DNA of 63,491 nucleotides from Patescibacteria group bacterium (GCA_038206475.1 JBBRAU010000004.1:1-63491), one strand, 5' to 3'. Counted from the first letter of the stretch, positions 26,008 through 32,711 are shown. A program made the numbers and translations. The notes: generated by a model from the sequence alone, not told the origin.

Positions 26008-26551
26008 CCCCAGGCTTTAGCCTGGGGATGAAGGCCTGCCTGGAGCGAGTCACGTGAAAACACGTGGCGAGCGGAAGCTGCTTGTGGCAGACTGGCGATA
26101 TGAGCAGCAACCAGCCAGAGTTTTGGACCGGCGCGCATACGAAACATCGTTTGGTACACCACCTGTGCTGGATCCCAAAGTATCGCTGACGAATATTGCG
26201 CGGAGAACTGGCGCGCCGTCTGGTTGAACTTTTCCAACAGGCGGCAGAGGTGAACCAGTGGGGGTTGTACGAGTGTCAAGCCCTGCCGGACCACGTCCAC
26301 CTCTTCCTCCAGTTCAGCCCCAGTGAATCCGTCGCTGAGGTGGTTCAGAAATTCAAGGGTGGGTCCAGCTTCACACCACGGAAAGAGTTTGCTGAACTGG
26401 AGGAATTTCTCTGGGGAGATCAGTCTTGGTCGGACGGCTACTTTGCCGAAACAACCGGCAGGACGGATGAGCGCGTCATCCGTCGATATATTCAGAACCA
26501 GCGAGCCAGCGCTGCCACAGCCTAGACAAAGCCGCGGGCTTTAGCCCGCGG
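26008..26551 (+). mobile_element. IS200/IS605-family (IS200-type, tnpA only) element; ends approximate
   Basis: A Y1 (HUH) transposase gene is flanked by two subterminal hairpins of the same design. Left: ccccaggc-ttta-gcctgggg at 26008-26027. Right: ccgcgggc-ttta-gcccgcgg at 26532-26551. Confidence 0.7.
26100..26525 (+). pseudogene. tnpA: IS200-type transposase TnpA interrupted by an in-frame TGA
   Basis: ATG at 26100 gives MSSNQPEFWTGAHTKHRLVHHLCWIPKYR, then TGA at 26187-26189, then the same frame continues RILRGELARRL...DHVHLFL...WSDGYF...YIQNQ (track ORF 26196..26525). HUH and catalytic Tyr motifs are intact. Confidence 0.75.
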
Positions 26552-26722
26552 AAGTTTACAAGAAACTTCTTCCAGTCTAGGGCTAACTATATTCATATTA
26601 TGGATCTCCGCAGTTACGCTACACAGGGGTGAATTTGCTTTATTGATTTTACTGAGATCTTTTCCTCACGCAAGAAATTAATCGCTTCCTGAAAACTAAC
26701 AATTATCAGGTTTGGAGAGTAT

Positions 26723-26756: not shown

Positions 26757-26830
26757 TGGCAGGCCCTGAGCGAATCGAACGCCCGACCGTGGTTTTGGAG
26801 ACCACTGTTTTGCCACTAAACTAAGGGCCC
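26757..26830 (-). tRNA. trnW: tRNA-Trp (anticodon CCA), CCA end encoded
   Basis: Cloverleaf read by hand: GGGCCCT/AGGGCCT acceptor, D arm GTTT..AAAC, anticodon stem GTGGT/ACCAC with loop CTCCAAA, T arm GGGCG TTCGATT CGCTC, discriminator G plus CCA. 74 nt. Confidence 0.9.
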
Positions 26831-26894
26831 GCACTTCATTCGGCCCTTTTTAGTCGCTTACGCGCCTAATAGGGGCCCGCACTTCATTTGGCCC
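26825..26894 (-). repeat. 48-nt-period duplication of the tRNA-Trp 5' end plus leader hairpin
   Basis: gggcccgcacttcattcggccc (26825-26846) and gggcccgcacttcatttggccc (26873-26894) match at 21 of 22 positions. The first copy includes nt 1-6 of the tRNA. Confidence 0.8.
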
Positions 26895-27004
26895 TTGCCA
26901 CTCACTACATGCTTATGATAAGGACTACGCGTACACAGTAGCATATTTTAGCTATTTCTGACATCAAAATGCCGGTGGTAACCGGCATTTTCCCGCTTTA
27001 AACC

Positions 27005-27199
27005 TTAGCGCTTTTGCGCTTGTGGTTTAGTGTTCGGCATTTTTTTCTCGTCGTGCTTGGTTAGCGCGTGATCGTGTTTACAGTACTTATCGCGGGAGAG
27101 TTTACCTTCCACGTTCCTTGTCTTGGGGACAAAGTAGTTGGTGCTGTTACACGTTGCGCAAACAAGCATGACGAGCGTGGCGCCTTTACCTTTAGCCAT
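27005..27199 (-). CDS. rpmG: 50S ribosomal protein L33
   Basis: MAKGKGATLVMLVCATCNSTNYFVPKTRN...KYCKHDHALTKH matches the L33 pattern. SD AAGGAG. Embedded in the tRNA cluster, as in many bacteria. Confidence 0.85.
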   Translation of the reverse strand: MAKGKGATLVMLVCATCNSTNYFVPKTRNVEGKLSRDKYCKHDHALTKHDEKKMPNTKPQAQKR

Positions 27200-27233
27200 A
27201 TAGCTCCTTGCTGCTTCTAAACATAAATAACGA

Positions 27234-27309
27234 TGGAGCTGAAGACGGGGATCAAACCCGTGACCTCGCCCTTACCAAGGGCGTGCTCTATCAACTGAGC
27301 TACTTCAGC
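27234..27309 (-). tRNA. trnT: tRNA-Thr (anticodon GGT), CCA end encoded
   Basis: GCTGAAG TA GCTC AGTTGATA GAGC A CGCCC TTGGTAA GGGCG AGGTC ACGGG TTTGATC CCCGT CTTCAGC T CCA. 76 nt. Confidence 0.9.
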
Positions 27310-27469
27310 GAACGCAGTGAGCTGAGGCAAGGTTCTGACGCAACGCGGCAGGTTCTTACTTCAGCGAACGCAGTGAGCTGAGGCAAGGTTCTGCTCTGCA
27401 AGAGCAGGTTCTTACTTCAGCACGAATGAAATGAGTGCGAAAGAAACGTTCTCATGCAGCGCATGAGGT
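27301..27469 (-). repeat. tandem array (period 56 nt, 3 units) reiterating the tRNA-Thr(GGT) 5' end with structured spacers
   Basis: 27301-27337 and 27357-27393 are identical at 37 of 37 positions (tacttcagcgaacgcagtgagctgaggcaaggttctg). A third, diverged unit starts at 27413. Each unit carries a 7-bp stem / 3-nt loop hairpin at 27335-51, 27391-407 and 27451-67, each with a different stem sequence. Confidence 0.85.
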
Positions 27470-27525
27470 GGTTATTCAGTCTGTATAAGGTCACGAGCTC
27501 CGCTTATCAAATGAGCTACTCACCC
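27470..27525 (-). pseudogene. decayed tRNA 5' half (tRNA-like fragment)
   Basis: The minus strand reads GGGTGAGTAGCTCATTTGATAAGCGGAGC. It shares GTAGCTCA(G/T)TTGATA with tRNA-Thr(GGT), but no anticodon arm, T arm or 3' acceptor strand follows. Confidence 0.4.
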
Positions 27526-27573
27526 TCTCCTTTGTACGGCATTTTAACCTTTTTGTCGAGAATCGCTTATGTT

Positions 27574-27593
27574 TGGTGGGCCGGGGAAGAACC
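27574..27593 (-). repeat. partial second copy of the tRNA-Tyr 3' end
   Basis: tggtgggccggg at 27574-27585 is identical to 27666-27677 (the complement of tRNA-Tyr nt 75-86). It then reads gaagaacc versus taggattcgaacc in the real gene. Confidence 0.7.
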
Positions 27594-27631
27594 TCTTGCT
27601 TCACTCGAGAACCTTGCTAGTCTGCACAGAA

Positions 27632-27662
27632 GAAAATACCCGAGCTTGGCTCGGGTATTTTC
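27632..27662 (-). terminator. intrinsic terminator after tRNA-Tyr
   Basis: 14-bp perfect stem gaaaatacccgagc/gctcgggtattttc with a 3-nt loop, beginning 4 nt after the tRNA-Tyr 3' end. T-rich 3' side on the minus strand. Confidence 0.7.
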
Positions 27663-27665
27663 TTC

Positions 27666-27751
27666 TGGTGGGCCGGGTAGGATTCGAACCTACGAAGCCG
27701 AATGGCAACAGATTTACAGTCTGCTCTCGTTGACCACTTGAGTACCGACCC
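27666..27751 (-). tRNA. trnY: tRNA-Tyr (anticodon GTA), long variable arm, CCA encoded
   Basis: GGGTCGG...GACTGTAAATC...long variable arm TGCCATTCGGCT...GGTTCGAATCC...CCGGCCCACCA. 86 nt, a class II tRNA as expected for bacterial Tyr. Confidence 0.9.
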
Positions 27752-27762
27752 TTAACATGTTC

Positions 27763-27838
27763 TGGAGCCGCCTCGCGGATTTGAACCGCGGACCTTTTCT
27801 TTACGAAAGAACTGCTCTACCACTGAGCTAAGGCGGCC
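27763..27838 (-). tRNA. trnT: tRNA-Thr (anticodon CGT), CCA encoded
   Basis: GGCCGCC TTA GCTC AGTGGTA GAGC A GTTCT TTCGTAA AGAAA AGGTC CGCGG TTCAAAT CCGCG AGGCGGC T CCA. 76 nt, 11 nt upstream of tRNA-Tyr. Confidence 0.9.
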
Positions 27839-28030
27839 TCACTTCGTTCGGCCTCTTGCCACTCGCTACGCTCGTGGTAAGGCGGCTCATTATACTCGCC
27901 TACCTTTTCTCTCGCGTTGATCGAGATAAGGCGGCGCGTTGTTTCACTGGTGTGCCTTTTTGCTCCCTACGGTTGCAATAACGCGGCATGTTTCAATCGC
28001 GTTAAACCAGCTCGGCATGCCTTAAACTAG
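27829..28030 (-). repeat. tandem array (period 49-52 nt, 4 units) reiterating the tRNA-Thr(CGT) 5' end
   Basis: Units start with taaggcggc at 27829, 27878 and 27927, and with taacgcggc at 27979. The first overlaps tRNA nt 2-10. Each unit folds into a hairpin whose stem differs between units. Confidence 0.7.
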
Positions 28031-28053
28031 CATAAAAAGGTCATTTATTAAAG

Positions 28054-28764
28054 TTACTTCCCTATCCGCTTCGTCAGCGTTTTGTGCTGTTCGTCTTTTT
28101 GCTTAGCCTCATCTAACAGCTCTTTCATCTCGGCGTTGCCCGGCTCAAGCGCTACAGCCCGGCGCAGCGCAGAGACAGCCCGGCCGTACTGGCGCAGCGT
28201 TAAGTAGCAAACGCCCAAATTGGCGTAGCGCAGCGCATTCTTGCTACCACCCTCCAGCGACAATTCGAAGTAGCAGGCAGCCTCAGTGTAGTGGTTGGTT
28301 TTAAATAAGGCCAAGCCTAGATTATGGGCCAAGTAGCTGTTTTCCGGATCGAGCTTAAAGGCTGCCTGAAACGCCTCGAGCGCATCAGCATATTCGTGCG
28401 TTTCATCGAGGTAAATGATGCCGAGCCGATTGAGGGCATGGACACTGTGCGGGTCAGAGGAGGCGGCTTTTAAGTAGCGACGCTCGGCCAAAGCAATCTT
28501 GCCCTCGTCAAACAGACGGTCGGCGTCATCAAGCAGTGCCTGCACCTCCGATGCGACCGGCTTGCCCGGCGGTGACTGCAGCAGCTCAGCAGCGTCTTCA
28601 ATACTGGCCTCTTCATTTAGAATTGGCGGTTTCACTTCAGCTGGCGACGCCTGTTTTGGCGGACGCGGCATCGGCAAAGTAGGCGTTGACCGGCTTGAGC
28701 GGCGAGTACTCCACCAGAAGGCAGTGACTAAGAGCGCCAGAAAACCAACTTCAAGCATAGTCAT
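28054..28764 (-). CDS. membrane-anchored TPR repeat protein
   Basis: N-terminal TM (VGFLALLVTAFWW) and a C-terminal run of TPR-like repeats (AERRYLKAASSDP..., ALEAFQAAFKLDP..., AVSALRRAVALEP...). Confidence 0.75.
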   Translation of the reverse strand: MTMLEVGFLALLVTAFWWSTRRSSRSTPTLPMPRPPKQASPAEVKPPILNEEASIEDAAELLQSPPGKPVASEVQALLDDADRLFDEGKIALAERRYLKAASSDPHSVHALNRLGIIYLDETHEYADALEAFQAAFKLDPENSYLAHNLGLALFKTNHYTEAACYFELSLEGGSKNALRYANLGVCYLTLRQYGRAVSALRRAVALEPGNAEMKELLDEAKQKDEQHKTLTKRIGK

Positions 28765-29434
28765 GATGAGTCTGTAGAATGACGGCTAACTGCTCGGCTT
28801 GCAGTCGTTTTGAGGCGGTGCTGCCAGCGGCTCGCCAAGCGTGCAGCAGCGCTGTGAGCACCTGCGGACGCAGAACCGTCTCTTGCCGCGCAACTTCAAG
28901 CATCTGCTGGAGGAGTTGGCGGTAATCATCACGGCCGGCTAGCTCGGCAGCCGCTTGAAAGGCCGCTGACAGCGGGGGCTGCTGCAGCGCTTGCCAGTAG
29001 TGCTTTGTGTCAGTCGTCTCGGTCTCATTTGCCTGATTGTAGATAACCCGCAACCTCGACAAGGTTGTCGGCAGCAAATCCAGTCGCGGCGTGGTTAGTA
29101 AAAACCGGGTGTTCTTCGCCGGCTCTTCTAACGTCTTCAAAAAAGCCTGCTCAGCTTCTGGTAGCAAATCTGCGGCGTTATCAATTATGCCCAAACGAAA
29201 AGGGCTTGTAAGCGGCCTCAATGCCGCTTGGCTGATGAACTGGCGCATGGCGGCAATATTTACTTCGAGCAGCTGAAAGCGATCGACAAGAGCGACGCCG
29301 AGCGCATCGGCCACAGCGGCCGTGTCCAGTCCGGCGCCAACCACACAATAGGCATGGTGTAGCCGACCGGCCGCAAGGTCGGCCTGGAGCCGTTCAATGA
29401 CGCGAGAACTATCTGCCATCTCACTCCCGAACAT
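28751..29434 (-). CDS. holB: DNA polymerase III delta-prime-like (clamp-loader) protein, short and without P-loop
   Basis: RLHHAYCVVGAG and FLKTLEEPAKNTRFLLTT match HolB signature regions. There is no GxxGxGK(T/S), and the protein is only 227 aa. Confidence 0.55.
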   Translation of the reverse strand: MFGSEMADSSRVIERLQADLAAGRLHHAYCVVGAGLDTAAVADALGVALVDRFQLLEVNIAAMRQFISQAALRPLTSPFRLGIIDNAADLLPEAEQAFLKTLEEPAKNTRFLLTTPRLDLLPTTLSRLRVIYNQANETETTDTKHYWQALQQPPLSAAFQAAAELAGRDDYRQLLQQMLEVARQETVLRPQVLTALLHAWRAAGSTASKRLQAEQLAVILQTHHDYA

Positions 29435-29459
29435 ACGGCAGTTCTGTTATATTGACCAT

Positions 29460-29867
29460 ATGATAGACGACACAAACTCTAGCGCCGTCAACATGGAAAT
29501 AGCGGCCGAGGGTCCTTTGGTTGACCAAACGCTCGAGTGCCGCGACTGTGGCGACCTTTTTTTGTTTACCGCCGTCGAGCAGGCACACTACCGGGAGAAG
29601 GGATTAAAACATGCCCCCAGCCGCTGTCCGAGCTGCCGCAAAAAAAATCGCGAAGCGGTTCAGGCGACGATGGTCCAGGTTGACTGCCGCCGCTGCGGCC
29701 GACGCGGCTTCATCCCACACGTACCGGACGGCAGTATTGATGCGCTCTGCGAGTCATGTTTATTGGCGATCAAACAAAAAGTCGGCGTCTCTCCCGAGCC
29801 CGCCGACTGGTCACAGTTACAAGCACTAAATCCGCCTGCGGAGACAAACAGAGTCTCCTCGCAATAG
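29460..29867 (+). CDS. zinc-ribbon domain protein
   Basis: Start set to the ATG at 29460 (MIDDTN). CRDCGDLFLFTAVEQAHYREKGLKHAPSRCPSCRKK resembles the zinc-ribbon family that has the EQxFY motif. A second CxxC...CxxC follows. Confidence 0.6.
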   Translation: MIDDTNSSAVNMEIAAEGPLVDQTLECRDCGDLFLFTAVEQAHYREKGLKHAPSRCPSCRKKNREAVQATMVQVDCRRCGRRGFIPHVPDGSIDALCESCLLAIKQKVGVSPEPADWSQLQALNPPAETNRVSSQ

Positions 29868-30059
29868 CTAGGCTACGGTGGGATGTGCGGACAGCTCCGC
29901 CAGTTGCAGCCGGCTAACCGTACGACGACAACTTGAACAAAGCATCATGCCGCTGGCGCGCTGCAAGTTTGGCTTGACGCGCGTAATGGTGCGATGCTGC
30001 GAGTGCGGACGGTTAAATTTTTTTTGCGCTGATTTCAGGCAGAGTGTGCAGATAGCCAT
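29868..30059 (-). CDS. rpmB: 50S ribosomal protein L28
   Basis: MAICTLCLKSAQKKFNRPHSQHRTITRVKPNLQRASGMMLCSSCRRT fits L28. Start moved to the ATG at 30059 within track ORF 29868..30125. Confidence 0.85.
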   Translation of the reverse strand: MAICTLCLKSAQKKFNRPHSQHRTITRVKPNLQRASGMMLCSSCRRTVSRLQLAELSAHPTVA

Positions 30060-30210
30060 GGCGATTCCTTCTATTTTTTGATGTAGACTGAGAGCTAGGT
30101 GATTATCGCCGAAGGCAATGTTCACATAGGACTCCTTTTAATTACGTCAGTCTTCACATATTGTATGGAAAATTGGCCTTCCGGTCAAGCAATCAACTCA
30201 CAAGGAGCCC

Positions 30211-30837
30211 ATGGGTCTGCTCGCAACATTTTTGGCCAATCCCACCGCCGGCATTACGATTGCCCTGGGTTTAGTTATTTCGCTGTCCGTACACGAATTT
30301 GCTCATGCCTATGCGGCACACAAGCTGGGTGACAACACGGCCGAGCATCTTGGTCGCCTGACACTTAACCCATTGGCTCACCTTGACCCAGTGGGTACGA
30401 TCGCCTTGCTACTGCTGGGCTTTGGGTGGGGCAAGCCAGTACCGTATGATCCGCGCAACTTAAAACGCCAAAGTGATCCAATTGTGATCGCTTTGGCTGG
30501 GCCGTTGTCCAATATTCTGATCGCCGCCTTGATGGGGCTGGCTCTGCGCCTGGTCTTAATAAACCCGACGCTTCTAAACGGACCGGCGCCGACCATTTTG
30601 ATTACCGTCGCCTCAATTAACCTATTTTTGGCCGTTTTTAATCTGATCCCTATACCACCCTTGGACGGCAGCCGCATTTTGTCGGTCTTTTTGTCCGTTC
30701 GGCAACAGTTGCAGCTTGAACAGTACGGCTTTGTTTTACTACTCGCGCTGGTTTTTTTCGGCCAGAATCTACTGCAAGGTGTCCTCGGACCGATTGTGGC
30801 CGCGCTTGGCCGCTTGGTTGGTGTCCCGGGCCTCTAG
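30211..30837 (+). CDS. site-2 protease family (peptidase M50) membrane metalloprotease
   Basis: HEFAHAYAAH (HExxH) lies in the first TM region. Polytopic, with the downstream NLIPIPPLDG motif. Confidence 0.85.
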   Translation: MGLLATFLANPTAGITIALGLVISLSVHEFAHAYAAHKLGDNTAEHLGRLTLNPLAHLDPVGTIALLLLGFGWGKPVPYDPRNLKRQSDPIVIALAGPLSNILIAALMGLALRLVLINPTLLNGPAPTILITVASINLFLAVFNLIPIPPLDGSRILSVFLSVRQQLQLEQYGFVLLLALVFFGQNLLQGVLGPIVAALGRLVGVPGL

Positions 30838-31974
30838 GGACTTCCGCTCCAAGTACTGCCGATTTTGCAGCTTCTCTGGCAGATAGCTCTTTTGGTCATA
30901 TTTGTTGTAGCCCCGACCATAGCCCAACTCTTTCATTAGTTTGGTTGGCGCATTGCGAATGTGCAGCGGAATCGGCAAATTGCCGTGTTTTTTGACGTCG
31001 GCCTGGGCTGCCCGCAAAGCGTCATATGCCCGACGGTCTTTTTTGGCTTCCGCTAAATAGGCGACACCATGAGCCAGGTTTATCGCGCACTCCGGATAAC
31101 CTATTATTTCGACCGCCCGGAAAACGTCGTTGGCCACCACCAGCGCCGTCGGCTGGGCCAGACCAATATCTTCAGAAGCAAAAATAACCATCCGGCGGGC
31201 AATAAACTTTGGATCTTCCCCCGACTCGACCAAGCGTGCCAAGTAGTACAGCGCCGCATCCGGTTGGCTGGCCCGCATGCTCTTGATGAAGGCGGAGATG
31301 GTATTGTAGTGCTCCTCGCCTTTCTTATCAAACCGCAGGGTCGAAGATTGCAGCGTTTGGGTCAAAGTCGCCACAGTTACGTTGTCATACAATTTGACAG
31401 TATTTTCTATCATGGTTATTAATTGTCTGGCGTCACCATTGGCCATCTGCACCAGCCAGTCGGCGGCTGCCGGTTCAAGCGCAACACCGGTGCGGGCAAT
31501 AATTTGCATTATTTCCGGCTCATGCAGTTCAGAGAGCGTAAATATGCGACAGCGCGAAAGCAGCGCCGGGATAACCTCAAAGCTCGGATTCTCAGTAGTG
31601 GCGCCAATTAAGTTTAGGCGACCCTGCTCAACATAGGGCAACAAAAAATCCTGCTGGGCTTTGTTGAAGCGGTGAATCTCATCCAAGAACAAGATGAGCG
31701 GCCGTTGGTCTAGCCGCGGCGTTTCAACCAGCTTGCGGATATCCTCCTTGCCAGCCGAGACAGCCGACAGCTCCACTAAATCGCCATTCATGGCTGTGGC
31801 GTAGATGCGCGCCAGGGTAGTTTTGCCAACGCCCGACGGCCCCCACAAAATAAAGGAGAAGAGATGCTTTTGCTCAATCGCAACTCGGAGCGGGCCGCTT
31901 GGACCAACTAAATGCGTTTGGCCGGCAAACTCCTCAAGCGAGGTTGGCCGCATTCTGGCGGCTAGTGGCTCCAT
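30769..31974 (-). CDS. rarA: replication-associated recombination protein A (AAA+ ATPase)
   Basis: MRPTSLEEFAGQTHLVG, Walker A GPSGVGKTT, Walker B LFLDEIHRFNKAQQD and the MgsA C-terminal domain (ISAFIKSMRASQPDAALYYLARL). Confidence 0.9.
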   Translation of the reverse strand: MEPLAARMRPTSLEEFAGQTHLVGPSGPLRVAIEQKHLFSFILWGPSGVGKTTLARIYATAMNGDLVELSAVSAGKEDIRKLVETPRLDQRPLILFLDEIHRFNKAQQDFLLPYVEQGRLNLIGATTENPSFEVIPALLSRCRIFTLSELHEPEIMQIIARTGVALEPAAADWLVQMANGDARQLITMIENTVKLYDNVTVATLTQTLQSSTLRFDKKGEEHYNTISAFIKSMRASQPDAALYYLARLVESGEDPKFIARRMVIFASEDIGLAQPTALVVANDVFRAVEIIGYPECAINLAHGVAYLAEAKKDRRAYDALRAAQADVKKHGNLPIPLHIRNAPTKLMKELGYGRGYNKYDQKSYLPEKLQNRQYLERKSLEARDTNQAAKRGHNRSEDTLQ

Positions 31975-32011
31975 CCGTTTAGTCTAGCATAAACCGAACA
32001 GATGCCATAAG

Positions 32012-32032
32012 AAAACCCGGCGCTCGGCCGGG
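32012..32032 (-). terminator. intrinsic terminator downstream of tRNA-Pro
   Basis: The minus strand reads CCCGGC cgagc GCCGGG followed by TTTTCTTAT. Confidence 0.5.
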
Positions 32033-32100
32033 CTGCCTTATTTGACGGACATAGCCCTGAAGACCGGGAAGACATTCAGGGCACAGAAGTGGTTAATTTT

Positions 32101-32176
32101 TGGTCGGGGTGGTGAGACTTGAACTCACGACCACCGGACCCCCAGCCCGGTGCGCTACCAACTGCGCCACACCCCG
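32101..32176 (-). tRNA. trnP: tRNA-Pro (anticodon GGG), CCA encoded
   Basis: CGGGGTG TG GCGC AGTTGGTA GCGC A CCGGG CTGGGGG TCCGG TGGTC GTGAG TTCAAGT CTCAC CACCCCG A CCA. 76 nt. Confidence 0.9.
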
Positions 32177-32397
32177 TCCGATTCAGCAGCCATGCGAAGC
32201 ATGGTGGCTGGAGCGGAATGGATGGAGGAGCGTGATTGGCAACGTTCTGGCCGCAGGCCAGGTTGTTACCAACTGCGCCACACCCCGCACCACACAACTG
32301 GTCCACACAGTGGGCCGGTTGGGCGGTGTAGAACGTGCGCATGTTGGCAAGGTTACCGAACGAAGTGAGGTGTTCTTACCAACTGCGCCACACCCCG
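32156..32397 (-). repeat. three perfect copies of the first 21 nt of tRNA-Pro at about 110-nt period
   Basis: taccaactgcgccacaccccg occurs at 32156-32176 (inside the gene), 32267-32287 and 32377-32397. The intervening sequence is diverged but keeps a GGCAA(G/C)GTT-hairpin-GTTNT module. Confidence 0.85.
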
Positions 32398-32711
32398 ACA
32401 ACTTTCGTCTGCTTCCGAAGGGCCGGGCGGAAGGTGCTGATCGTGGCAAAGTTGGCAAGGTTTTCGAGCGGAGCGAGAAATCCTCGTATGGACATCGCTT
32501 CGCCTTATCCCCGCCCCGGAAAATTGGCGTTCAAACACCAAGTGGGTGCCCGCAGCCGACAGACCACGGTCCGCCGGCAATCTAGAGCGTTGTTTTAACG
32601 CACCGAAGTGGAAAAACAGCGCCGGTCAGAGACCTGCTCCCATAAATAAAAGTAGAACCCAATTTTCCGAGTGCGAGGTACGCTTACATTAGCACATTTT
32701 CATCGAAATTA

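Follow-up and report, generated by a model that had tools for sequence, protein, structure and literature searches.

Short motifs beside the tRNA genes of a Patescibacteria genome belong to a family of very small DNA repeats that form hairpins

We analyzed a 63,491-nucleotide stretch of DNA from a Patescibacteria group bacterium, here called the window. All five tRNAs of the window lie on the minus strand (ARAGORN), and short repeated motifs accompany each of them. The features are:

26100–26525, plus strand: IS200-type Y1 transposase gene with an in-frame TGA (26187–26189), outside the repeat family.
26757–26830, minus strand: tRNA-Trp(CCA) (ARAGORN; Rfam tRNA, 60.9 bits).
26825–26846, minus strand: mini-hairpin B directly upstream of tRNA-Trp, with arms GGGCC plus tRNA nt 1–6 and the core GAATGAAGTGC at 26831–26841.
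26872–26899, minus strand: second B unit at tRNA-Trp, GGCAAG-GGCC-AAATGAAGTGC-GGGCCCC, its final part repeating tRNA-Trp nt 1–6.
27234–27309, minus strand: tRNA-Thr(GGT) (ARAGORN; Rfam).
27310–27365, plus strand: Thr(GGT) unit 1, 56 nt (sequence reading; predicted fold).
27366–27421, plus strand: Thr(GGT) unit 2, 56 nt, with hairpin A at 27382–27415.
27420–27479, plus strand: degenerate third Thr(GGT) unit, GCAC-GAATGAAATGA-GTGC with its 11-mer at 27424–27434, then a decayed hairpin A.
27574–27617, plus strand: complement of the tRNA-Tyr 3' end, 12 nt with the CCA (27574–27585), fused to a hairpin A.
27666–27837, minus strand: tRNA-Tyr (27666–27751) and tRNA-Thr(CGT) (27763–27837), 11 nt apart (ARAGORN; Rfam).
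27835–27853, minus strand: mini-hairpin B at tRNA-Thr(CGT), GGCC-GAACGAAGTGA-GGCC, its 3' arm being position −1 plus tRNA nt 1–3.
27854–27886, minus strand: Thr(CGT) leader, a copy of tRNA nt 1–9, GCCGCCTTA (27878–27886), running into a hairpin.
32101–32176, minus strand: tRNA-Pro(GGG) (ARAGORN; Rfam).
32238–32288, plus strand: hairpin A, GGCAAC-GTT-CTGGCC-GCA-GGCCAG-GTT-GTTACC, with the complement of tRNA-Pro nt 1–21 (32268–32288) fused to it.
32346–32398, plus strand: hairpin A tipped by the 11-mer (32358–32368), GGCAAG-GTT-ACC-GAACGAAGTGA-GGT-GTT-CTTACC.
32445–32480, plus strand: GGCAAAGTT-GGCAAGGTT, then the mini-hairpin TTTC-GAGCGGAGCGA-GAAA (core 32466–32476).

At tRNA-Trp, the two B units carry a 14-nt direct repeat, TGAAGTGCGGGCCC, and are separated by a small hairpin with a GTA tip. 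The first Thr(GGT) unit begins with the 11-mer GAACGCAGTGA (27310–27320), continues with an inverted near-copy of tRNA nt 1–7 (GCTGAGG) and the hairpin A GGCAAG-GTT-CTGACGC-AAC-GCGGCAG-GTT-CTTAC (27326–27359), and closes with the complement of tRNA nt 1–9 (27357–27365). Unit 2 has identical flanks and a wholly different 11-nt hairpin A tip (CTCTGCAAGAG). The tips differ at 10 of 11 positions, which looks like the replacement of a cassette, not drift. In the third unit, hairpin A has decayed to GAAACGTT-CTCATGC-AGC-GCATGAG-GTG-GTTATTCAG. The hairpin A of tRNA-Tyr lies downstream of its gene and is mirrored; read on the AAC strand it is GAAG-AAC-CTCTTGCTTCACTCGAG-AAC-CTTGC (27586–27617). The copy of the tRNA-Tyr 3' end followed by a reversed AGAACC...AGAACCTTGC module, as described in the original prediction, is present. 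The Thr(CGT) leader hairpin, CTTACC-AC-GAGCGTAGCGA-GT-GGCAAG, has its mini-hairpin core at 27863–27873, and just upstream of this unit we saw a TATAAT box by eye (27889–27894; a promoter scan made no call). At tRNA-Pro, a second complement of tRNA nt 1–21 (32378–32398) is fused to the 11-mer-tipped hairpin A.

The original prediction linked the tRNA loci by seven copies of an 11-mer, GAAYGMARTGM. We found six exact matches in the window (26831−, 27310+, 27366+, 27424+, 27839−, 32358+), versus 0.80 expected; none of 100 shuffles reached six. The seventh copy, at 26879, was correctly read as AAATGAAGTGC and has one mismatch. Two diverged copies had been missed: GAGCGTAGCGA at 27863(−) and GAGCGGAGCGA at 32466(+). 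All copies are upstream of a tRNA because all five tRNAs are on the minus strand. Their distance to the tRNA 5' end is 1–115 nt, within the predicted limit of about 130 nt, except for the 11-mer at 32358, which lies 182 nt from the complete tRNA-Pro and ∼10 nt from its 21-nt partial copy. The 11-mer is in the sense of the tRNA at tRNA-Trp and Thr(CGT) and antisense at Thr(GGT) and Pro, as proposed. Its flanking arms derive from acceptor sequence at 26831, 26879, 27310, 27366, and 27839. Two copies are exceptions: at 27424 the arms are GCAC/GTGC, and at 32358 the 11-mer tips a GGCAAGGTT...GTTCTTAC hairpin. All four exact GGCAAGGTT copies of the window (27326, 27382, 32346, 32454) are inside tRNA-linked arrays.

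The 11-mer is no bare loop, as had been thought, but itself a mini-hairpin with its own base pairs. Module B consists of a variable local stem followed by Y-GA-[2 bp]-GNA-[2 bp]-GA-R, that is, a GNA triloop on two covarying pairs above tandem G·A/A·G. Positions 3 and 9 covary, in support of this predicted fold: across 47 genomes we counted A-T 52, G-C 80, G·T 11, and A·C 7 (Fisher p = 1e-21). Among words matching only the six fixed purines, 22/70 in noncoding DNA were fully paired versus 7/241 in coding DNA; in the genome G116, the figures were 101/187 and 10/172. The C-GNA-G core, with its C:G closing pair and any N, resembles the d(GCGNAGC) mini-hairpins, whose stability has been reviewed (PMC13037366), and both GA steps sit in the published 5'-Y-GA-R-3' context of tandem sheared G·A pairs; core and context alike match the rules for unusually stable single-stranded DNA folds (PMC13037366; PMC3201870). 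Those papers cover physical chemistry and isolated natural examples, whereas here the motif forms a genomic repeat family. Module A, of which the GGCAAG(GTT) motif is one strand, has an outer stem (GGTAAS/SUUGCC), a 3×3 internal loop that reads AAC/AAC on one strand and GTT/GTT on its opposite, an inner stem of variable sequence, and a tip of 11 nt. The tip is swappable and is at times module B itself. An Rfam covariance-model scan recovered the tRNAs only, with every other match far below the gathering score.

The short motifs beside all five tRNA genes are thus modules of one repeat family, as the original prediction held, and it extends across the genome and the class. The motif is neither random genome-wide nor confined to the window: in the source genome, its density in noncoding DNA less than 300 nt from a tRNA is ∼16 times that of other noncoding DNA, and 130 of 162 genomes of the same class carry the 11-mer family, at 0–100 copies per genome. 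Counts vary 20-fold inside one family. The richest genomes, G116 (100 copies) and G018 (85 copies), have most copies far from tRNAs. At orthologous sites, arrays can be present in one of two congeneric species and absent from the other: four intergenic sites hold arrays of 450–900 nt in G116 and are 6–68 nt long in G018. The family therefore looks selfish in its behavior. We found no published description of it. No insertion event was caught inside a single population, where the one available run offers contigs that break at the repeats.

Our best reading, with about an even chance of being right, is that these palindromic DNA repeats are of the REP/MITE kind, selfish or neutral, and that tRNA leaders and trailers tolerate them. 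The earlier suggestion of REP-like modules that copy their target fits best, since the elements are intergenic palindromes whose copy number varies, which congeners may have or lack, and which sit between direct and inverted copies of tRNA ends. Like the REP/BIME/REPIN-RAYT elements of Enterobacteria and Pseudomonas, they are short imperfect intergenic palindromes in many copies, clustered and in both orientations, with strong copy-number variation between related genomes; both probably fold as single-stranded hairpins. Unlike REPs, they have the tandem-G·A/GNA tip, the AAC/AAC internal loop, module nesting, and bracketing by tRNA-end copies. They resemble bacterial MITEs that restore or provide signals (Correia/NEMIS, RPE of Rickettsia, RUP, BOX) in being non-autonomous, palindromic, modular, and placed in transcribed regions without killing the gene. 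Inverted arms are present, but there is no fixed-length target duplication: the direct repeats are 9, 16, 18–19, or 21 nt long, vary between tRNAs, and in every case have one end at the border of a tRNA gene. Nor was a parent autonomous insertion sequence with the same ends seen in the 0.73-Mb genome, in a search that covered Y1_Tnp, tyrosine recombinases, and reverse transcriptases. Mobile organelle elements, the yeast mitochondrial GC clusters (PMC4478555) and the repetitive hairpin-forming elements of sponges (PMC2800124), are likewise described as tiny hairpins spreading through very compact genomes, and for them too no dedicated transposase is known; their sequences and hosts are unrelated, and their abstracts do not report tRNA-end copies.

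The tRNA-end copies belong to the tRNA beside which they lie. Over the whole genome, a tRNA's own first 9–21 nt recur upstream of it in 12 of 44 cases and its own last 10–19 nt downstream in 11 of 44, versus 5 of 1874 mismatched tRNA/flank control pairs (∼0.3%). Direct copies start exactly at tRNA nt 1 in at least eight independent cases, and upstream copies are 100% identical to their own tRNAs. Neutral copies should drift, so this identity counts against a neutral reading. A simple transposition model whose target-site duplication has a fixed length predicts neither the nt-1 starts nor the exactness; they could reflect selection or else a specific system of recombination. tRNA-end copies are much rarer in the repeat-rich G116 and G018, and thus the hairpins and tRNA-end copying may be partly separate phenomena.

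Relics of integration, one of the origins first proposed, remain a live rival, though we judge it unlikely that site-specific recombination at tRNA genes left the units behind as scars or mini-cassettes. Module A and E3, a module of ∼100 nt found behind other tRNAs of the source genome, would be folded sites, like integron attC or CTX phage attP, used by the single Xer-like or a phage-supplied tyrosine recombinase whose integration would duplicate the tRNA from one of its loops up to the end of the gene. Williams in 2002 reportedly divided the att sites of tRNA-targeting integrative elements into sublocation classes. As at such att sites, where direct repeats run from the T-, anticodon, or other loop to the gene end with the intact tRNA on one side, direct repeats of a loop-to-end tRNA segment flank the inserts. 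The downstream copies are mostly 18 nt, from position 58/59 to the gene end, which is the classical T-loop att block, and upstream copies stop at position 9 or in the D-loop. The layout of module A is attC-like, with unpaired central triplets between an outer and an inner stem and with a variable tip, and its polarity is strict: it points toward the tRNA in 14 of 14 cases (upstream 11/11 sense, downstream 3/3 antisense), a sign that the mechanism may be directed. Elsewhere in the class, one genome has a tRNA-Pro(CGG) gene interrupted within the anticodon loop by a 152-nt insert with a 5-nt ATTCG repeat; the insert holds a second complete tRNA-Pro(CGG). On the other side, the inserts are hairpins only, 56–140 nt long, without integrase or cargo and too small for double-stranded circles. 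One small module follows many different tRNAs, each with its own end; each insert would need to bring the correct end of its own tRNA, and 5'-end copies are as common as 3'-end copies, unlike at att sites. Every repeat-rich genome has only a single Xer-like tyrosine recombinase gene, presumably the chromosome-dimer resolvase, and we found no extra integrase. In G116 and G018, arrays lie within ∼1.5 kb on both sides of this gene, but arrays occupy 12–14% of intergenic regions, so this neighborhood is weak evidence. Strict patterns of module A and E3 gave chance matches only in 2.9 million viral contigs.

Orientation bears on whether the units are functional structures of pre-tRNA leaders and trailers, in which acceptor-strand replicas and the two hairpins, A and B, would serve as decoys or control folding, RNase P cleavage, or 3' maturation. 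In the source genome, the 11-mer ends at exactly −1 or −2 in 8–9 tRNAs, with a 3' arm formed by tRNA nt 1–4 or 1–7. The exactness of the tRNA copies agrees with such a role, and −10 boxes seen by eye upstream of units imply that the units should be transcribed. The leaders of Thr(CGT) and Thr(TGT) are 93% identical apart from one 19-nt hairpin, whereas the tRNA bodies are 80% identical. However, that very hairpin is inverted between the two leaders. Unlike an RNA element, the 11-mer has no fixed orientation relative to transcription: genome-wide, 11 copies are sense and 9 antisense to the tRNA, and relative to flanking genes the split is 18/26 in G116 and 16/14 in G018. Module A is mirrored on the two sides of tRNAs, so that opposite strands would be transcribed. 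The 0–100 copies per genome, the arrays that come and go between congeners, the G116 and G018 copies far from tRNAs, and the lack of any Rfam family match weaken the earlier idea of a processing or regulatory leader further, and we regard it as improbable.

Which enzyme, if any, moves the repeats? REP-like palindromes are classical RAYT substrates and would suit such an enzyme. A Y1_Tnp gene lies ∼250 nt from tRNA-Trp, and homologues occur in 87 of 162 genomes of the class. Mobilization by a Y1 HUH transposase, either a RAYT or the neighboring IS200 TnpA named as a possible partner, is nevertheless very unlikely. The gene carries the in-frame TGA, and its own flanking hairpins, CCCCAGGC-TTTA-GCCTGGGG and CCGCGGGC-TTTA-GCCCGCGG, have TTTA loops and are unrelated to modules A and B. 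In REP-RAYT systems, a cognate Y1 gene is in the genome and usually repeat-flanked; here the stop-bearing IS200 gene is the only one, and the repeat-rich genomes G116, G018, G023, and G029 have no Y1_Tnp match. This lack of co-occurrence largely refutes a Y1-mobilized REP. REP palindromes carry a conserved GTAG or CGTC at one end (PMC3733652), but the units here end in GGTAAG/GGTAAC or local sequence without this tag; the GTA found at the junction is part of the tRNA copy. The 0.73-Mb genome has one Y1_Tnp gene, one tyrosine recombinase gene, and no reverse transcriptase. The SINE-like, retro-copied origin also suggested is not supported on this last point, and in relatives without encoded CCA the tRNA copies stop at the gene end, not with CCA. 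Among Y1_Tnp, reverse transcriptase, Nop/Tas, and extra integrase we found no mobilizing enzyme.

Guide-RNA arrays of the TIGR-Tas stem-loop or bridge-RNA-like type are barely credible. In this reading, the 7-nt arms on either side of the 11-mer would be paired spacers against the tRNA gene 5' end. The tandem units do have a conserved loop, two short variable tRNA-matching segments, and a palindromic separator, and TIGR systems are known in parasitic bacteria, with a stem-loop-array variant (PMC12045711), but TIGR units are 36 nt with two non-complementary spacers and box C/D flanks, whereas ours are 56 nt with arms that pair together and no in-register CCA/UG box motifs, the family is dispersed with no single array beside an effector gene, and the source genome and six repeat-rich relatives gave no match to a Nop-domain protein (PF01798), a profile that a very divergent Tas could escape.

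Taken together, these results favor selfish or neutral repeats, in which two nested kinds of small palindrome would form non-autonomous elements widespread in this class. We think that the modules act as DNA, not RNA, and fold out as hairpins or cruciforms. They may multiply by copying: local tandem duplication would occur at the GTA/GGTA microhomology that module A shares with tRNA positions 7–9 and 19–21, the palindromes would extend outward and capture inverted copies of adjoining sequence, and short-patch conversion may act between repeat copies. RNase P RNA is present in the genome, and repeats in tRNA leaders and trailers would be harmless because RNase P and 3' trimming remove the flanks. 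Hairpin repeats of this family are common among ultrasmall (CPR/Patescibacteria) bacteria; here, where the genome is very compact, they would survive mainly in tRNA leaders and trailers.

We counted the 11-mer GAAYGMARTGM in the window and across its genome (0.73 Mb in 13 contigs, of which the window is C4; ~97% complete, 44 tRNA genes). All five window tRNA genes, tRNA-Trp, Thr(GGT), Tyr with Thr(CGT), and Pro(GGG), lie on the minus strand, and upstream of them means towards higher plus-strand coordinates. Six exact matches were found where they had been predicted, compared with 0.8 expected, and none of 100 shuffles reached six. The original prediction had listed seven copies; the seventh, at 26879, is one base off the pattern, and two diverged copies, at 27863 and 32466, had been missed. 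The four exact window copies of GGCAAGGTT all fall in the same arrays as the 11-mer, and the stated orientations proved correct, as did the module reported after the duplicate of the tRNA-Tyr 3' end. The hairpin arms, thought to come from the neighboring tRNA at every copy, are not tRNA-derived at 27424 and 32358. In this repeat region, Rfam recognized only the tRNAs. In the noncoding DNA of the present genome, motif density is ~16 times higher within 300 nt of a tRNA than elsewhere. Nor is the motif confined to the window. The 11-mer family, scored with the strict 13-mer CGARCGNAGYGAG, occurs in 130 of the 162 genomes of the class at 0–100 copies; reversed-pattern controls scored close to zero. 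The analysis confirms the observation and extends it: the element consists of small palindromic repeats with unusual, well-defined features.

The 11-mer had been taken for a bare loop. Aligned copies (for example GAACGNAGTGA, GAGCGNAGCGA, GAATGAAATGA, and GAGTGTAGCGA) align as a stem extension instead: their consensus, G-A-x-y-G-N-A-y'-x'-G-A with x pairing to x' and y to y', yields two G·A/A·G pairs in tandem, then two Watson-Crick pairs, and on top a GNA triloop with C:G as its closing pair. We call this mini-hairpin module B:

CAGC-GAACGCAGTGA-GCTG, an example of module B with its outer stem

Both GA steps stand in a 5'-Y-GA-R-3' context. According to published work, DNA mini-hairpins become extraordinarily stable through c(GNA)g triloops and Y-GA-R tandem mismatches (PMC13037366, PMC3201870). 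A similar fold could also form in RNA. Positions 3 and 9 covary in another 47 genomes of the class (A-T 52, G-C 80, G·T 11, A·C 7; Fisher p ~1e-21, or 8e-7 with a single count per type and genome). To avoid selecting for pairing, we also scored words defined by the six fixed purines alone and called a word fully paired when it had the inner pairs and a 3-bp outer stem. Fully paired words made up 22 of 70 in noncoding DNA versus 7 of 241 inside ORFs, and in G116, a repeat-rich genome of the class, 101 of 187 versus 10 of 172. The outer stems are built from local sequence (CAGC/GCTG, GGCC/GGCC, TCAC/GTGA, TTAT/ATAA, GTTC/GAAC). Module B shows no preferred orientation: 11 copies are sense and 9 antisense to nearby tRNAs, and where the flanking genes are co-directional, the split relative to them is 18/26 for G116 and 16/14 for its congener G018.

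The GGCAAG(GTT) motif belongs to a second hairpin, module A, of which it forms one strand. Upstream of tRNAs, the tRNA-sense strand reads GGTAAG-AAC, then an inner stem with an 11-nt tip, then AAC-CTTGCC; a variant, GGTAAC...GTTGCC, carries a compensating C:G, and a conserved T·G is kept in the outer stem. The two AAC triplets oppose each other in a 3x3 internal loop, also in predicted folds. The tip varies between copies (CTCT-GCA-AGAG or GGCC-GNA-GGCC, for instance), and in tRNA-Pro unit 2, tRNA-Phe, and tRNA-Ala(CGC) it is module B itself; thus, the two modules are nested parts of one family. Upstream units 1 and 2 of tRNA-Thr(GGT) have identical flanks and differ at 10 of 11 tip positions, which looks like cassette replacement rather than gradual divergence. 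Polarity is strict. The AAC strand is tRNA-sense in 11/11 cleanly detected upstream copies and antisense in 3/3 downstream copies, and tRNA-Tyr and the imperfect copies, judged by eye, follow the same rule. Because its orientations mirror each other across the tRNA gene, transcription would read one strand of module A upstream and the other downstream. The exact pattern had no match in 30 same-class genomes, so this flavor of module A is lineage-specific, whereas the 11-mer is class-wide.

On its GGTAAG side, module A is invariably fused to a copy of the terminal sequence of the adjoining tRNA. Upstream copies comprise tRNA nt 1-7/9 (Thr, Met, Cys, Ile, Val, Ala) or extend to nt 1-16 (Glu) or 1-21 (Pro, Phe, Arg), and they start exactly at nt 1 in at least 8 independent cases. 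Downstream copies comprise the last 10–19 nt, most commonly the 18 nt from position 58/59 to CCA. An exact copy of a tRNA's own first 9 nt lies within 400 nt upstream for 12 of the 44 tRNAs, and the last 10 nt are repeated downstream for 11 of 44; mismatched tRNA/flank pairs scored 5/1874 in each test. At its other side, the palindrome is usually closed by the same segment in imperfect inverted form, which then base-pairs, over module B, with the 5' end of the actual tRNA. The resulting alternation, a-A-a'-B-a, is found at tRNA-Thr(GGT), Met, Trp, and Ala(UGC). Among 12 loci sampled from other genomes, 7 have the motif within 300 nt of a tRNA, often in an insert behind which the 3' end of that tRNA is repeated. 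The tRNA genes of these relatives do not encode CCA, and the copies stop at the gene end or, in one case, 3 nt into the trailer; their source is therefore DNA rather than mature tRNA. The 18-nt copies ending at CCA do resemble a primer-binding-site or m1A58 footprint. Retro-copying of mature tRNA was rejected on these CCA-less copies and because we found no reverse transcriptase in the present genome, G116, G018, or G028.

Several composite arrangements were seen. The leaders of tRNA-Glu(UUC) and tRNA-Glu(CUC) (C8:27589-27859 and C12:9580-9809) are assembled from two shared kinds of 51-nt unit that both begin with tRNA nt 1-15/16, in different order and number (U2-U1 versus U1-U1-U2). Downstream of tRNA-Ala(CGC), immediately after an 11-mer hairpin, stands a 25-nt "microhelix" tRNA-Ala (C2:14330-14355) in which nt 1-8 are joined directly to nt 59-75 (GGGCCTGT-CTCCTCAGGTCCACC). 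A conserved module of ~100 nt, E3 (GGTTCGGTC, 11-mer hairpin, GGGGGTACCC, variable hairpin, GGGGTCT), lies downstream of tRNA-Ser(GGA), Asn, Met, Leu(UAA), Ala(UGC), and two tRNA-Glu genes on C1, C3, C8, C11, and C12. It is preceded by a hairpin pairing the tRNA ACCA with TGGT, and its last part is an 18-nt copy of tRNA positions 59-76. E3-like modules also stand behind tRNA-Gln elsewhere in the class (loci L010 and L016), as does a related insert, with the 11-mer and a 3' copy, behind tRNA-Lys (L015). A near-identical copy of both tRNA-Pro upstream units (window 32236-32400) occupies a contig end, C6:55190-55471. The genome has tRNA-Pro(GGG) and tRNA-Pro(CGG) and lacks tRNA-Pro(UGG), which probably sits behind these same units in the assembly gap just beyond the end of C6.

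Copy number is uneven. Within one family, 100 and 85 copies were counted in the congeners G116 and G018, respectively, versus 2–5 in their relatives. We compared most of these two genomes (~79% identity over 311 kb): at four orthologous intergenic sites, G116 carries arrays of 450–900 nt where G018 has 6–68 nt of unrelated spacer. Their units are built differently (TACTGTTC-GAACGRAGTGA-GAACTA ... TAGTTCTCG-hairpin-CGAACAGTA) and are not concentrated at tRNAs. In the present genome, the leaders of tRNA-Thr(CGT) and tRNA-Thr(UGU) are 93% identical over 54 nt once one 19-nt hairpin (CCAC-11-mer-GTGG) is flipped, whereas the tRNA bodies, old paralogues, are only 80% identical. This implies recent module transfer or conversion, together with inversion in place. 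Public reads held the locus in a single DNA run (Logan contigs, broken at the repeats) and in no RNA run. A search for close relatives through neighboring proteins yielded nothing useful for HolB and, for MgsA, loci lacking the tRNA-Pro synteny.

These results make us lean, with about as much confidence as doubt, toward REP/MITE-like palindromic repeats that are selfish or neutral and act at the DNA level, as hairpins. We favor this reading because of the covarying fold, the uneven copy numbers across the class, presence and absence between congeners, modular nesting, indifference to orientation, and the in-place flip. In behavior, the family is closest to REPs and to the enzyme-less mobile hairpins of organelle genomes. 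It nevertheless lacks the tag and the enzyme of RAYT-linked REPs, the fixed-length target duplication of classical MITEs, and the integrase or cargo expected of att scars left by integrative elements, and it matches neither TIGR arrays nor any Rfam family. Searches of the present genome for Y1_Tnp, tyrosine recombinase, and reverse transcriptase genes revealed no parent IS. In the present genome, the data point to tRNA leaders and trailers as the main places where the repeats are tolerated. Leaders can be removed, since the genome has an RNase P RNA; its gene (C6:41880-42358, minus strand; bacterial type A, 114 bits) is 479 nt long versus a 367-position model, implying insertions of roughly 110 nt. 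The tRNA-end copies may have arisen by local tandem duplication at GTA/GGTA microhomology between module A and tRNA positions 7-9 or 19-21, by outward extension of palindromes, and by short-patch conversion.

A purely passive model is awkward in the face of the exact nt 1 starts, the perfectly conserved copies, and the strict polarity of module A. These features keep directed recombination in play as a less likely rival, in particular at a folded-hairpin site for the lone Xer-like recombinase, in the manner of attC or CTX phage. Each of seven repeat-rich genomes encodes exactly one tyrosine recombinase, and the present genome has the following candidate:

C1:9871-10404, the single Xer-like recombinase gene

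Cassette-like insertion into a tRNA gene is seen in another genome of the class, G034 (locus L008, minus strand, ~157 nt around tRNA-Pro(CGG) 1653-1726). There, a tRNA-Pro(CGG) is broken in the anticodon loop by a 152-nt insert that contains a second complete tRNA-Pro(CGG); a 5-nt ATTCG repeat accompanies the break, and ARAGORN calls an intact tRNA-Pro(CGG) when the halves are joined. Thus, tRNA genes in the class do undergo such insertions. In G116:C49 and G018:C1 (L180, L192), repeat arrays lie within ~1.5 kb on both sides of the single recombinase gene; this may be chance, as 12–14% of intergenic regions hold arrays. In its specific form, with module A as a folded single-strand recombination site at which a host enzyme, most simply the lone Xer-like recombinase, inserts, duplicates, or exchanges mini-cassettes at tRNA gene ends, we regard this explanation as improbable. 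If true, CPR bacteria would have an integron-like system aimed at tRNA ends, capable even of exchanging entire tRNA genes, for which the split tRNA-Pro in G034 would be an example.

The nearby IS200 transposase, proposed as a partner enzyme, fared worse. Its gene (window 26100-26525, plus strand), the only Y1_Tnp of the genome, lies between tRNA-Trp, 250 nt away, and a dockerin-domain gene. It contains an in-frame TGA at 26187-26189 (KYR*RIL), and its own end hairpins with TTTA loops, CCCCAGGC-TTTA-GCCTGGGG (~26009-26028) and CCGCGGGC-TTTA-GCCCGCGG (~26533-26552), are unrelated to the repeats. Across the class, Y1_Tnp does not track motif abundance and is missing from G116, G018, G023, and G029; we therefore rejected an IS200/RAYT partner. 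TIGR-Tas or bridge-RNA guides were rejected on unit size and self-complementary arms, and because no Nop-domain protein was found in the seven repeat-rich genomes. Archaeal-type BHB introns were discarded since the AAC triplets, by our reading, are opposed and not staggered by 4 bp; the splicing endonuclease is also not known from bacteria. Sigma-70 and sigma-54 promoter modules misfit in spacing, with an empty promoter scan on the tRNA strand, and a phage attP origin was dismissed because strict module A and E3 patterns gave only chance or coding matches in viral contigs.

We found no description of such repeats in CPR bacteria in the literature. In practice, the repeats break assemblies and contigs end in them, as with the tRNA-Pro(UGG) gene probably lost in a gap, and partial tRNA copies can mislead the annotation of tRNAs and att sites. 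The genomes of CPR/Patescibacteria are among the smallest and most streamlined of bacteria, so up to 100 copies in 0.5 Mb is unexpected, and the repeats must be either tolerated in special places or useful. The covarying fold, the two polarity rules, and the systematic copies of tRNA ends offer a concrete handle on a copying or recombination process that operates without a recognizable transposase.
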